The notes below the pieces were generated by a model, which saw only the letters and a list, made by a program, of their open reading frames with translations, searched no databases and had not been told where the DNA came from. From Phycisphaerae bacterium (GTDB lineage Bacteria > Planctomycetota > Phycisphaerae > UBA1845 > Fen-1342), in NCBI GenBank assembly GCA_050115495.1, contig JASFQK010000016.1, positions 32,001-96,000 on the forward strand: 64,000 nt of DNA, written 5' to 3'. Positions 15,145-18,245 of this stretch are shown one piece after another. The translations under genes were made by a program, and so were the position numbers. Each line of letters starts with the position of its first letter. The stretch's first letter is position 1.

Positions 15145-15561
15145 GTGGGCGGACGTAATCCATACATCGACCAGCCCGACGCGCCGCTGCCGACGAAGAA
15201 GTACACGATCACATTCATTGATGAAGAGCAGCAGCGGCACGTGGTCGAGGTCGATCCGGCCAATCCGCCGGCGAAGGTGACGGGTCGGCCGGGGAGCATC
15301 TTGTCGATCGCGCTCGCCCAGGGCGTCGAGCTGGATCATGCGTGTGGCGGGGTTTGCGCGTGTGCAACATGCCACGTGGTCGTGCGGGAGGGGTACGATT
15401 CGTGCAGCGAGCCGACGGACGCCGAAGAGGACCAGCTTGACGAGGCGTACGGTCTGACGGCGCAGTCGCGGTTGGCGTGCCAGTGTGTGCCGAACGGGGA
15501 GGAGGATTTGGTGGTGGAGGTGCCGAGCTGGAATCGGAATAAGGTGCGGGAGGAGCATTGA
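15145..15561 (+). CDS. fdx: ISC-type [2Fe-2S] ferredoxin
   Basis: HACGGVCACATCH...SRLACQ; AGGAG SD upstream of GTG. Confidence 0.92.
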   Translation: MGGRNPYIDQPDAPLPTKKYTITFIDEEQQRHVVEVDPANPPAKVTGRPGSILSIALAQGVELDHACGGVCACATCHVVVREGYDSCSEPTDAEEDQLDEAYGLTAQSRLACQCVPNGEEDLVVEVPSWNRNKVREEH

Positions 15562-15610
15562 GGGGGGGAGGGGGGAGCCGTCAGCCGTCAGGTACGGGCC
15601 GTGAGCCGGA

Positions 15611-15873
15611 GTGTGGCATGCTGAAGCCTCTGGCGCCGGCATGTCTTTTTCTCGCGTCGGGGACTACATGCCGGCGCTGCGCTTCGGCATGCCACACTTC
15701 TGTCGATCATCGGTGGATGCTGGCACTGGTGGGCAAGCCACCGGTGGCACCCGGCGATGTAGCGGCCGACCTCCGTGTCGGACGTCGTTGGGCAACGCGT
15801 GTTTCGATCGGCGGTTGACGGATGGTTGGTTCAGCGCGCTTCGAAGCACACTGCTCAAGAGCAGTGGCACACC
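15611..15873. repeat. Cluster of REP-like palindromes
   Basis: GTGGCATGC..GCATGCCAC (15613-15694); GGCACTGGTGG..CCACCGGTGGCACC (15722-15751); GTAG type B (15759-15786); CACTGCTCAAGAGCAGTGGCACACC (15849-15873), the exact reverse complement of 43607-43631. Confidence 0.8.
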
Positions 15874-15903
15874 GGGAGATCACTCCGGGGGCGGGTTGGG
15901 CGC

Positions 15904-15946
15904 AAAAAAGCGGCCCGCCGGGGATAATGCCGGCGGGCCTTTTTTC
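15904..15946. terminator. Bidirectional intrinsic terminator
   Basis: AAAAAA gc GGCCCGCCGG-8nt-CCGGCGGGCC TTTTTT. Confidence 0.85.
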
Positions 15947-16205
15947 TGGGGGCTGCCACTACGCAGCCACGTTCGCTGCGCTAGGGCAGCCACCGTTTAT
16001 CACTAGGCACTGGACCACCTCCTTTCGGAAAGGGCAACCTACGGCCTTCGCGGTCCAATAGCGACAGGCCGCTAAGCCCCGTCCGCCGGCCGTCGCCCGC
16101 GGACACAACGCGCGATGAACATCGCATCGCTCGGCCGGGCCTCCGTCACGTCCGCATCCCTCGCCCGTTGTTTGAGAGATGTCGGGGGGCGTACGGTGGC
16201 CCTGC
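15905..16205 (-). ncRNA. Candidate structured small RNA or micro-ORF transcript
   Basis: Bounded by a sigma70-like promoter and a terminator; contains several hairpins and GAAAGGAGGTGGTCCAG followed by a GTG-started 9-aa ORF. Confidence 0.45.
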
Positions 16206-16211
16206 ACTATA

Positions 16212-16240
16212 AGTGTAGCCCGTTCAGCGTGTCCCGGCAA
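16212..16240 (-). promoter_or_regulatory. sigma70-like promoter
   Basis: Minus strand reads TTGCCG-17bp-TACACT. Confidence 0.55.
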
Positions 16241-16334
16241 AAGAAAAGCGCGCCGGTCCCCCAAACGGCGCAATAATTGCTCGTTTCGGTCCTCGAACGT
16301 CCGCTTCAGTTCCGGCAGTCGGCGTCGCCCGCCG

Positions 16335-18245
16335 CTACTGCACGCCGTGCATCATCCGTTTCAGCGGTCGGATCAGCAGCGCCATCAACGCCGCCCCCAC
16401 GCCGCACATCACGACGAACATCAGGAAGTAGTTCGTCGGCGGCATCTGACCCCACCACGCTCCGAATACCTGGGCAAGCTTCTCGGCGATCGCCGTCGCC
16501 AGGAACCACCCACCCATGAAGAGGCCCACGTGCTTGGCCGGCGCCAGCTTCGTTACCAGCGACAGACCCACCGGGGACAGGCAGAGCTCGCCCATCGTCA
16601 GCACCATGAAGAACAGAATCAGCCACCACACGCTCACCCGGAACGTGGCTGAGGTCAGATACACGTAGTCCACCGCAGCCTTGAACGCCGGCTCGGCGGC
16701 CGCCGCCAGGAACTCGGTGCGGGCTCGCTCCTTCACTTCCGACAGGGCGGTCAGCGTCTTCGTCGCCGGATCCCACCGCAACACCGTCTTCCGGTTCTGC
16801 CCCTCGCCTTCCTCGATCTCGAGCACGCCTTCGGTTGCCGGCCCGTCCTCGAGCTGTATCGTCGGCGACTCGTTCGCGAAGGCGTCCTTCTCCGCTGTAC
16901 GCTCTGCGAATGCCTTCACCGCCTCGATGACCTCGGGCGGCGCGGTCTCCGCCAGCAGCCGGAACCGGTCGAGGTCGGTGAGCACGCCGTGCATGGTCAA
17001 CTGGTGCTGCTTCGCGTCGTACCGCAGACGTTTGGCTCCGTAGTACGTGCGCTTCTCCTGCTCTGCGGTGTACACGTGACCGTCGTCATCTACCGCCAGG
17101 CTGTCGGGCAGCGCCGACAGGGCGGCACTGCTCGCCCCGTTTTCCAGGTGCGCCGCCGGCCACATCACGCCGAACGCCACCGCCACCAGCGCCAGCCCCA
17201 TCACCATCTTCGTCGGTGTCGACGGCTGCCGCTTCCGCCGGTCCAGCCAGACCCAGAAGAACGCGGCCACGGGTGCCAGCGTGATGATGAAGAACGGGTT
17301 GAACGATTGCGTTTGCCCCGAGGTCATACTCGGGTTTCGGAACCAGCTTCCGATCGCCGCACCCCACCCACCGGCCGCCTGCGTCGTTGTCGCCTCCGCC
17401 TCGCTCAGCGTCACCGGTGGGGGTGTGGTCGATGCCAGTTGCAGATTCGTGTGCTTATCGGCCCACACCAGCATCGCGTTCGGGCTCTGCTCGAACGCTG
17501 TCCAGAACAGGATAATGAACGCGAAGACTACCAGCAGCACGATGATCCGGTCGCGCACCACGTGTGGCGGGTGCACTTCCGTTGGGTGTGCCTCCTCGTT
17601 CAGCTCGGTGTTGCCCAAGTCCTGGTTGAACTCGACCAGTTTGCGCTGTCCGATGATGTACACGATCAGGCCCGCCACCATGCCCACACCGGCGGCCCCG
17701 AACCCGTAGTGATAGCCGTAGTGCACGCGCAACCAGTCGCAGATGAGCGGACCGATCAGTGCCCCCAGGTTGATCCCCATGTAGAAGATGGTGAACGCCC
17801 CATCCCGCCGCGGATCCCCTGGCTTGTACAGGGCACCCACCTGCGTCGACACGTTCGGCTTCAGCAGCCCCACGCCAGCGATGATGAAGCCGAGCGCCGT
17901 ATAGAAGAACGGCAACGGCTCGAAAGCCATCAGGAAGTGCCCGATGGTCAGCAGGATCGCTCCGACCACCACCGCCCGCTTGGCGCCCAACCAGCGGTCG
18001 GCGACGAAGCCGCCCACCACCGGCAGACCGTATGCCAACGCCGCGTACGTCCCCAGCAGTCCCGAGGCGTCCTCCTGCGACCAGAAGAAGTGGTTGATCA
18101 TGTACAGCATCAACAACGTCTTCATACCGTAGAAGCTGAAACGCTCCCACAACTCTGTGAAGAACAGGACGTAGAGGCCGCGGGGATGACCGAAGATCTC
18201 CCCCGACCGCGTGGGAGCGGCGGGGTTGGCCGGTTGGGTGGACAC
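16335..18245 (-). CDS. POT/PTR proton-dependent oligopeptide transporter with inserted soluble domain
   Basis: GHPRGLY, ELWERFSFYG (ExxER), KPNVSTQVG, FYMGINLG, FWTAFEQ, MGELCLSPVGLS; GTG start at 18245. Confidence 0.92.
   Translation of the reverse strand: MSTQPANPAAPTRSGEIFGHPRGLYVLFFTELWERFSFYGMKTLLMLYMINHFFWSQEDASGLLGTYAALAYGLPVVGGFVADRWLGAKRAVVVGAILLTIGHFLMAFEPLPFFYTALGFIIAGVGLLKPNVSTQVGALYKPGDPRRDGAFTIFYMGINLGALIGPLICDWLRVHYGYHYGFGAAGVGMVAGLIVYIIGQRKLVEFNQDLGNTELNEEAHPTEVHPPHVVRDRIIVLLVVFAFIILFWTAFEQSPNAMLVWADKHTNLQLASTTPPPVTLSEAEATTTQAAGGWGAAIGSWFRNPSMTSGQTQSFNPFFIITLAPVAAFFWVWLDRRKRQPSTPTKMVMGLALVAVAFGVMWPAAHLENGASSAALSALPDSLAVDDDGHVYTAEQEKRTYYGAKRLRYDAKQHQLTMHGVLTDLDRFRLLAETAPPEVIEAVKAFAERTAEKDAFANESPTIQLEDGPATEGVLEIEEGEGQNRKTVLRWDPATKTLTALSEVKERARTEFLAAAAEPAFKAAVDYVYLTSATFRVSVWWLILFFMVLTMGELCLSPVGLSLVTKLAPAKHVGLFMGGWFLATAIAEKLAQVFGAWWGQMPPTNYFLMFVVMCGVGAALMALLIRPLKRMMHGVQ

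Follow-up and report, generated by a model that had tools for sequence, protein, structure and literature searches.

A conserved structured RNA of Phycisphaerae that likely captures and holds ribosomes rather than encoding a useful protein

The stretch of DNA considered here (the window) comprises 64,000 nucleotides (nt) of a Phycisphaerae bacterium (assembly GCA_050115495.1, contig JASFQK010000016.1, positions 32,001 to 96,000 of the forward strand), and on its minus strand, between window positions 16205 and 15905, it contains a gene of about 300 nt for a structured RNA, which is independently transcribed from its own sigma-70-type promoter and ends at its own intrinsic terminator (Table 1). 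An initial annotation, made by reading the letters, had proposed such a transcript together with both of its boundary signals. All of these were found, the promoters are kept in relatives, and RNA contigs of the gene occur in six metatranscriptome studies. The convergence with isc genes that was noted at the same time was confirmed by Pfam, with hscB, hscA and a 2Fe-2S ferredoxin gene (fdx) approaching from the plus strand, for which the terminator hairpin of the RNA also reads as a terminator. Upstream, on the same strand as the RNA, the gene for a POT-family transporter ends at 16335, and two open reading frames (ORFs) of 104 and 170 amino acids that overlie the RNA region were assigned to no family by the Pfam scan. 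The promoter scan detected one promoter-like site (against 0.2 in shuffled sequences) and favoured an overlapping arrangement, GGGACA-18-TATAGT (16235-16206), over the TTGCCG-17-TACACT first proposed. Almost every one of 71 family members has a near-consensus promoter (TTGACC or TTGCCn, a spacer of 16-18 nt, TAnAnT) at a constant distance, so placed that the predicted transcription start precedes the ribosome site described below by 166-210 nt (for one member, L030, the script assigned the promoter wrongly), and terminators likewise are present in nearly all of the 70 relatives found by pattern scan. The gene is single-copy in the window genome.

Table 1. Features of the RNA gene and its surroundings (window coordinates)
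Feature	Position	Strand	Details
RNA gene	15905..16205	-	5' end between 16205 and 16196; 3' end at the terminator T-run, or at about 15939 if processed
Sigma-70-type promoter	16212..16240	-	-35 TTGCCG (16240-16235), 17-nt spacer, -10 TACACT (16217-16212)
Alternative, overlapping -10	16211-16206	-	TATAGT; from sequence scan
P1 hairpin	16155..16181	-	CAUCUCU / AGGGAUG; loop CAAACAACGGGCG with GGGC at 16166-16163
P2 hairpin	16109..16133	-	GAGCGAUG ... CAUCGCGC; helix covariation
P3 hairpin	16081..16104	-	GUCCGCGGGC-GACG-GCCGGCGGAC; GACG tetraloop at 16094-16091, closed by C-G
Internal look-alike of the 16S tail	16050..16057	-	UGGACCGC; can pair with the 3' half of SD1 (GGUCCA) in the minimum free energy fold
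SD1	16010..16026	-	GAAAGGAGGTGGTCCAG = GAAAGGAGGUGGUCCAG; 17 nt complementary to the 16S 3' tail, one G-U
Mini-ORF	15981..16010	-	GTG CCT AGT GAT AAA CGG TGG CTG CCC TAG (MPSDKRWLP*); start 16010-16008, stop TAG 15983-15981
SD2	15990..15994	-	GGUGG inside the mini-ORF; the same letters occur in SD1, 25 nt upstream (24 nt would be eight codon steps)
Long hairpin	15951..15991	-	GGCUGCC...GCGCAGC-GAACGUG-GCUGCGU...GGCAGCC; loop 15974-15968; mini-ORF stop in the 5' arm
Intrinsic terminator	15904..15939	-	GGCCCGCCGG-CAUUAUCC-CCGGCGGGCC + U-run; stem 15939-15912, T-run 15909-15904

How far does this RNA extend beyond the window genome? A BLAST search with 341 nt detected the region in 24 of 41 related genomes (the window's own included), and a pattern scan of one genome per species, combining AAGGAGGTG, an interval of 20-50 nt and the hairpin-loop motif, returned 76 stretches, of which six were set aside by eye as chance coding matches (L038, L043, L061, L064, L086 and L101), leaving 70, all from records of Phycisphaerae, Phycisphaerales or Planctomycetota. 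A covariance model (R1) of the 3' module, built on the two-hairpin structure given by RNAalifold rather than on the covariation-supported long hairpin and so of limited sensitivity to distant members, detects the RNA in 36 of the 151 genomes of Phycisphaerae that were sampled, representing 12 of the 21 sampled families, and in 12 of 151 genomes taken from across the phylum, again including the window's own; these counts are lower bounds, as the model was narrowly trained and the filters were strict. Except in one of the 36 Phycisphaerae carriers, the gene is present as a single copy. Outside the class there were nine weak R1 matches (27.7-34.6 bits), seven of which we judged real (L129, L130, L131, L132, L134, L135 and L137): each has a long Shine–Dalgarno (SD) sequence of the kind described below (super-SD), a start codon, a frame of 8-13 codons ending in a hairpin, and a terminator. 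The other two, L133 (beside a 16S end) and L136 (with no SD), were rejected. Judged from these sequences, relatives of the RNA probably occur in other families of Planctomycetota outside Phycisphaerae; one group of relatives (f64) also has a 5' hairpin whose loop is GACG, as in P3. The simpler pattern of super-SD plus start codon, AAGGAGGTGATY-N1-2-DTG, is present in 84 of 401 Planctomycetota genomes, a nonspecific figure that is not a count of the family: of 30 such loci, 17 lead into ORFs of at least 45 codons and 13 into frames of no more than 23, nine of the latter having the layout of the family.

According to the alignment, the most conserved stretch of the RNA is its site of complementarity to the 3' tail of 16S rRNA (SD1). 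The initial annotation proposed that 17 nt could pair there with one G-U; the 16S rRNA of the window genome itself ends ...CTGGATCACCTCCTTTCTA, which bears out the pairing of all 17 nt with one G-U. Across the 5.97 Mb of the genome the 17-mer pattern has two occurrences, one in the 16S gene and the other in the RNA gene (written backwards, it has none), and within the family AAGGAGGUG, together with a U two places further on, is invariant in 71 sequences; the core of the site that never varies is 12 nt long. Scored against the tail of the window genome, the contiguous complementarity of the 70 unique members is 11-20 nt (median 15, G-U pairs counted). By comparison, the longest match to the 16S tail upstream of 3623 crudely defined long ORFs of this genome is 11 nt, in a single case, and a 4-nt SD core precedes 35% of these ORFs (13% at a control position).

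Two stems that the initial annotation thought capable of occluding this site are both present in the minimum free energy (MFE) fold of the window RNA, in which UGGACC (16057-16052), from the internal look-alike of the 16S tail, pairs with the SD letters GGUCCA, and CCUUU pairs with AAAGG. Inspection of the alignments by eye indicated that most relatives with a six-codon frame (see below) have (G)AUCACC, again the letters of the 16S tail, at the corresponding place and opposite GGUGAUC, and that GGACC opposite GGUCC in the window is a compensatory pair, an A-to-G change in the SD being matched by a U-to-C change in the look-alike but not by the 16S. In f64 relatives it is codons 2-4 that pair with another upstream segment, and three variants there are compensatory (also by eye). 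On the evidence of these predicted folds, the RNA seems able to close its own ribosome site.

SD1 leads directly into a mini-ORF. In all 70 members a start codon (ATG, GTG or TTG) is found 6-7 nt after GGAGG, and the frame that it opens has 6 (28 members), 7 (3), 9 (9), 10 (6), 11 (22), 12 (1) or 14 (1) codons, with indels of 3 nt that preserve it. The stop codon, at the base or in the 5' arm of the long hairpin, interchanges among TAG, TAA and TGA, and in 68 of 69 unique sequences this frame ends short of the hairpin loop, compared with 38 and 56 of 69 for the other two frames. Thus the first GTG frame of the initial annotation is not only present but conserved; the second, MINGGCPSAANVAA* (16003-15959), is present in the window, but conservation did not extend to it, its frame being the one that is closed before the loop in only 38 cases. 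The ssrA-like VAA ending attributed to that second frame has to be given up: AANVAA is a mere reading of the conserved hairpin, a stop codon follows it in the window only, and the transfer-messenger RNA (tmRNA) of the genome lies elsewhere. Comparison of frames across the 69 unique sequences revealed no conserved extended frame beyond the mini-ORF stop. Taken together, the constant start, the in-frame stop and the interchange of start and stop codons are comparative signs that the mini-ORF may be translated.

Within the mini-ORF there appears to be a second anti-16S element (SD2), in phase with the stop codon. When every register downstream of SD1 was scored against the 16S tail, the best secondary site fell at a distance of 3 x (number of sense codons - 1), to within 1 nt, in 49 of the 70 unique members, about 5.3 being expected if positions were uniform. 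Members in register are found in every ORF-length class with more than one member: 20 of 28 with six codons, 2 of 3 with seven, 5 of 10 with nine, 5 of 5 with ten and 16 of 22 with 11, besides the only one with 12 (1 of 1; 0 of 1 with 14). Among nine distant relatives the offset is at most 1 nt from the register in five and at most 2 nt in seven, and loci of the alphaproteobacterial RNA CC2171 (discussed below), which served as a negative control for the method, were in register in 1 of 13. The letters of SD2 vary by lineage (GGUGAU; GAGGUGG; GGAGG or AAGGGG in distant relatives), with the spacing kept. The geometry would be such that, when the stop codon is in the A site of the ribosome, the anti-SD faces an SD-like element at the spacing used for initiation. 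No such arrangement, with a phased second SD at a stop codon, was found described in the literature that we searched.

Could the locus nevertheless be a micropeptide gene, that is, an mRNA with a long structured 5' untranslated region and a very strong SD, whose product of 6-14 residues (nine here) is functional? The conservation of start and stop through synonymous exchanges of their codons, and the frame-preserving indels, would be expected of such a gene, and the 11-codon class (20 unique sequences) holds the motif [DE]-x-G-x-C-x-R-[WL]-L with variation at the third positions of codons 2 and 4. Against this, the peptides differ in length and sequence between subgroups (MxGDKx, [DE]xGxCxRWLx, MxxNIGxLx, MPSDKxRWLx) and between classes of the phylum; their C-terminal residues are set by the hairpin sequence GGCUGC; and in the six-codon class GGT GAT AAA never change at their third positions although the genome has 67% G+C, an absence of synonymous change that points to constraint at the level of RNA. 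In addition, Pfam analysis of the relatives' loci gave no conserved neighbouring genes for export or modification, and a micropeptide would leave both the 11-20-nt SD and SD2 unexplained. We therefore regard a functional micropeptide as unlikely, and the sequences suggest that the peptide is not the conserved product.

That the transcript is structured, as was first claimed, is borne out by its fold: over 316 nt the z-score is -5.56, and none of 100 shuffled sequences folds equally well. The RNAalifold consensus, tested on an alignment of 71 sequences (A2), has 87.6% of its cells paired (79.7% in shuffles) and 348 cells with changes on both sides (126 in shuffles), with a covariation score of 0.312 as against at most 0.112 when partners are slid; none of 500 shuffles reached the observed value on any of these measures. 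The best-supported helices are P2, P3, a variable P4, the inner part of the long hairpin, and the terminator. In the P2 region (helices 2-4) each of the nine pairs has both partners changed in some sequences, with 81-90% of cells paired; P3 (helix 5) has ten pairs, eight with changes on both sides, and 94% of cells paired; the long hairpin (helices 9-10) is 89% and 99.7% paired, with covariation in the inner part of helix 9 and a GAACGUG loop that is nearly invariant in the alignment; and in the terminator (helix 11) nine of 12 pairs show changes on both sides. RNAalifold applied to alignment A3 chose an alternative fold, with two small hairpins in place of the long one. P1 varies among CCUC/GAGG, CUCCC/GGGAG and GCUCU/AGAGC (by eye, A2), and its loop may tentatively be placed in a long-range pairing, GGGC with GCCC just before the SD: RNAalifold pairs GGG(C) with (G)CCC, with 72% of cells paired, and by eye some variants look compensatory (GGCU:AGCC, GGGU:ACCC, GACC:GGUC). 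A control comparing each sequence's own partner with those of others gave no excess for this pairing (mean helix 5.79 versus 5.75), and the pair next to the helix showed no covariation (27 of 42 pairable, with no association).

The GACG loop of P3 is also found in distant relatives, for example as GUCGCGCC-GACG-GGCGCGAC, and hairpins with a C-G-closed GACG tetraloop occur both in the 5' domain (as P3) and, among distant relatives, right after the mini-ORF stop (window 16094-16091, L129, L132, L134, L165, L166, L127 and L128, with up to three per RNA in the f64 group); in the subfamily of the window the second loop is GAACGUG. The recurrence suggests a shared partner or a loop-loop contact. It also invites the proposal that the RNA is a trans-acting regulator, in which mRNAs or a protein would be bound by these loops or by the 5' domain, and a ribosome loaded on the mini-ORF would do no more than stabilize the RNA or gate the loops. 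Besides the near-invariance of the loops and their recurrence, this idea would account for a 5' domain of about 180 nt that is spanned by covarying helices and that has no obvious role if the RNA simply holds ribosomes, and the capacity of the long hairpin to refold into two small ones would suit it. Its weaknesses are that loops of 4-7 nt are too short for a meaningful search for targets, that no target or partner has been identified, and that it is the anti-16S site, not the loops, that is most conserved; regulation in trans as the primary function thus appears rather unlikely.

In at least one environmental RNA library the RNA is very abundant. Contigs from six metatranscriptome studies, eight in all, are made up of the stretch of the RNA gene alone. 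Contigs from four wetland studies cover 15939-16199, 15938-16196, 16000-16197 and 15999-16196, with nothing beyond the RNA stretch, and close variants from two studies of soil and rhizosphere correspond to 15932-16184, 15930-16129, 15957-16129 and 16001-16196. The first of these (X1) is 261 nt long and without mismatch, and its word depth of 9979 amounts by our own arithmetic to about 0.7% of the letters in a run of 389 million, although contig depth is, as the tool itself cautions, a poor gauge of expression. Loose contig ends in these RNA runs reveal further members of the family. Stretches without contig cover (16212-16600 on the POT side in X1-X4, most of 15600-15905, and the terminator stem) were counted as no evidence. 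The two longest exact contigs (X1 and X2, from two studies) end at 15938-15939, around the first base of the terminator stem and after an A-run, which may reflect either a mature RNA without the terminator hairpin or a break in assembly. In three studies, contigs about 197 nt long (X3, 16000-16197; X4, 15999-16196; X8, 16001-16196) all stop at 15999-16001, in codon 4 of the mini-ORF (G|AUAAAC), where no loose end is listed; this is a weak hint that there may be a recurrent 3'-truncated species, made up of the 5' domain, the SD and three codons, left when the RNA is cut within the conserved GAUAAAC or where a ribosome is held.

What might such an RNA do? It seems likely, from the comparative evidence, that it captures and holds ribosomes rather than encoding a useful protein. 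The specific form of this reading to which we give a probability of roughly 45% is that the conserved function is carried out by engaging a ribosome, which SD1 would capture very tightly and which SD2, after the translation of a few codons, would retain at the stop. To begin with, SD1 would have to come free of the internal 16S look-alike at 16057-16050, whereupon a 30S subunit would bind it very tightly, through a predicted duplex of 11-20 bp (ordinary genes here have 4-6 nt). The 70S ribosome would then translate the mini-ORF, melt the 5' arm of the hairpin and arrive at the stop codon, where the anti-SD would pair again, now with SD2 in the register of initiation. By this means the RNA would tie up a ribosome, or report on ribosomes, with the peptide as a by-product; candidate outcomes are the storage of ribosomes, a gauge of translation capacity, or the gated exposure of the conserved GACG and GAACGUG loops. 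If this is so, the conserved business end of a widespread RNA targets the mRNA-binding tail of the ribosome, with a pairing that reaches two to three times further than in any ordinary gene of this genome, and it would offer a natural system for asking how long an SD duplex can become before the ribosome cannot leave, whether SD-like sites inside ORFs hold ribosomes, and whether RNA, besides proteins, stores or counts bacterial ribosomes. A family of about 300 nt, present in a dozen families of Phycisphaerae and probably beyond, is also added to the few large conserved bacterial RNAs of unknown function.

Several considerations weigh against ribosome capture and retention. Ribosome binding, translation and stalling are all suggested by comparison of sequences, and the tail of the window genome's 16S rRNA was taken to stand for those of the relatives. 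The predicted accessibility of SD1 is unremarkable, with a mean unpaired probability over 71 members of 0.38 (0.33 for the whole RNA) and of 0.15 in the window, so that according to the folding model SD1 may be mostly closed. As stops abound here in every frame, the in-frame stop is by itself weak to moderate evidence; and in the 11-codon class the variation in codons 2 and 4, being mainly at third positions (GA[ATC], GG[CTA]), leaves room for some selection at the level of the peptide. In the window itself the score of SD2 is modest, and its offset of 25, where 24 was expected, is tied with a site at offset 15. More generally, the members are related, and the 49 of 70 in register perhaps rest on about four independent SD2 designs (GGUGAU, GAGGUGG, GGAGG and AAGGGG). 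Finally, the genome encodes two hibernation proteins of the HPF type, and so there is no gap for a storage RNA to fill.

A more ambitious version of ribosome capture, which we consider doubtful, is that Planctomycetota possess a ribosome clamp made of RNA: a pseudo-mRNA which, having engaged the 16S tail in a duplex of about 15 bp, would allow the ribosome to read a few codons before seizing it again at the stop by means of SD2 in the same register, with a hairpin at the entry channel, and so park or meter ribosomes in slow-growing cells. The 5' domain, with its GACG loops, would then decide when the trap opens, and if this were true the clamp would be a device for ribosome hibernation or for sensing translation capacity, made of RNA instead of protein.

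Elements of this design can be recognized in known systems. In its own promoter, its own terminator and its small size, the RNA resembles translated (dual-function) small RNAs, which are a kind rather than a family; its mini-ORF may be translated, and a second activity at the level of RNA, by base pairing or protein binding, might reside in the conserved loops. Like tmRNA, it is an abundant structured RNA that would engage the ribosome directly and has a short internal frame with its stop in a hairpin; but it has no tRNA-like domain (ARAGORN found no genes in 15500-16500) and uses an SD and a start codon of its own rather than trans-translation, and tmRNA was rejected as its identity, since the tmRNA of the genome (RF00023) is found on another contig, at 169 bits. 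The STAB-SD element of cryIIIA mRNA in Bacillus thuringiensis, GAAAGGAGG, reportedly binds the 3' end of 16S rRNA without initiation and stabilizes the RNA. There the same letters would pair with the 16S tail to an end other than protein synthesis; however, STAB-SD has no start codon and lies at the 5' end of a long mRNA, whereas the site in the window is in the 3' third of a small RNA, and a stabilizer of that type is ruled out here by the start codon 6-7 nt downstream in 70 of 70 members. In the dnaX and prfB recoding sites, an internal SD-like element lies upstream of a site where the ribosome is held (in dnaX there is also a downstream hairpin). The mini-ORF resembles these in having an SD-like element at a set distance upstream of the P-site codon, with a stop codon (as in prfB) and a stable hairpin nearby, but its spacing of about 6 nt is that of initiation, being neither short, as for +1 shifts, nor long, as for -1 shifts, and there is no slippery sequence. 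The small RNA SprF1 of Staphylococcus aureus is said to bind ribosomes through a purine-rich stretch and to damp translation, and would be a precedent for a small RNA acting by ribosome binding; it bears no relation to the window RNA in sequence, size, taxon or architecture, and lacks a mini-ORF with a paired SD design. In the literature searched we found no description of a planctomycete RNA of this kind, nor of a bacterial small RNA that pairs with the 16S tail over such a length.

In searches of Rfam at gathering thresholds the whole window yields one tRNA only, and when E-values were used instead the sole relevant response was that of RF01867 (CC2171), at 30.8 bits, far below its cut-off of 75; the prospect, raised at the outset, that the RNA might prove to belong to an Rfam family already described has thus not materialized at that threshold. 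Other candidates were rejected. RNase P RNA (RF00010, 283.7 bits) and 6S RNA (RF00013, 45.7 bits) match on other contigs, with nothing at the RNA gene in the E-value scan, and a Guanidine-II riboswitch match (RF01068) was limited to one relative, at 23.8 bits (cut-off 32) and on the opposite strand, the loops of the window RNA being GACG closed by C-G, where that riboswitch has two hairpins with ACGR loops. The 6S match just mentioned, at C30:61478-61662 on the minus strand of the window genome (G000), is the best 6S candidate there and, falling narrowly short of the cut-off of 46.4 bits, is probably a true but divergent 6S RNA.

Might the RNA nevertheless be a distant member of RF01867, and hence already catalogued? 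It is the only Rfam model to respond, doing so also at six of nine loci in relatives (21.1-37 bits), and its consensus contains GAAAGGAGGUGAUCCAGUG. To compare the two, we searched 81 alphaproteobacterial genomes, in 13 of which RF01867 was detected at E <=0.001 (two above the cut-off), and examined the 13 loci (L112-L124). Like the window RNA, these have their own promoter and terminator, a complement of 15-17 nt to the 16S tail (GAAAGGAGGUGAUCCA), a start codon 6-7 nt further on and a short frame; in all of them a promoter is followed by a leader of about 20 nt and GAAAGGAGGTGATCC, then, 7 nt on, by the start codon of an ORF that has 22-32 codons and begins M-S, and finally by a terminator. 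They differ in having no structured 5' domain (the leader of about 20 nt comparing with about 175-190 nt before the SD in the window RNA, including its 180-nt domain), in the length and beginning of the ORF (M-S-H/S/N..., as against nine codons in the window), and in the near absence of an SD2 in register with the stop. The match of RF01867 in the window is confined to the SD and a generic terminator, all scores are far under 75 bits, and in the reciprocal direction R1 scores the CC2171 loci at only 13-24 bits. Because pairing with the same 16S tail forces the letters to be shared, the similarity does not demonstrate common descent, and membership of RF01867 appears quite improbable.

CC2171 itself, from Caulobacter and other Alphaproteobacteria, is of unknown function in the parts of the sources available to us; its expression has been detected by Northern blot in Methylorubrum (bioRxiv 10.1101/2022.01.24.477521), and it is listed in a table of the Rfam 15 paper (PMC11701678). 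Many of its loci share GGAGCAGCC near the end of ORFs that begin MSHCH..., MSS... or MSN.... Although filed as a small RNA, it may be the mRNA of a small protein or a translated small RNA, and the comparison suggests that it belongs to the same functional theme as the window RNA.

The genes around the RNA bear on a further explanation, namely that it is a cis-acting leader in which a leader peptide, mutually exclusive hairpins and a terminator attenuate a downstream gene. The short ORF, alternative hairpins and terminator are indeed those of attenuators of the trpL type, but the window RNA lacks both a conserved gene downstream and a run of regulatory codons, and the genes next to it converge on it in the window as well as in several relatives. 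In the window the downstream neighbour in this sense is hscA, and the same is likely in L006 and L007, where ORFs (L006:2-946 and L007:2222-3157) match Pfam PF10712 (NAD-GH) at 189-197 bits on the strand opposite hscA; PF10712 matches antisense translations of hsp70-type genes, and we take these matches as a marker of hscA on the other strand. Elsewhere the downstream neighbours on the opposite strand are a phosphatase gene (L009) and MgtE (L010), and where the next gene is on the same strand it differs from locus to locus (GT87, an RF-1-domain protein, PPK2; Pfam). The upstream POT gene is limited to the window, L006, L007 and L011 (Pfam) and L004 (by eye), which is to say within the genus, and beyond the genus the neighbouring genes, often convergent, are not conserved. 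As the neighbours vary between genera, a leader of one particular gene is excluded, and attenuation in cis can be considered very improbable indeed.

One of these same-strand neighbours, directly downstream of the RNA at L020 (1645-2079, plus strand), encodes a 145-amino-acid RF-1-domain protein (PF00472) with a GGQ motif and of the size of ribosome-rescue factors of the ArfB type, an association seen at this one locus. In the window, between the ferredoxin gene and the terminator, there is a near-perfect long inverted repeat (15609-15699, of the type GGCAUGCUGAAGCC ... GGCUUCGGCAUGCC), which gives weak matches to several plant and animal microRNA models and looks like a palindromic repeat of the REP (repetitive extragenic palindromic) type. 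From the terminator region, a related piece of 30 nt has a match on contig C24, next to a tRNA-like match.

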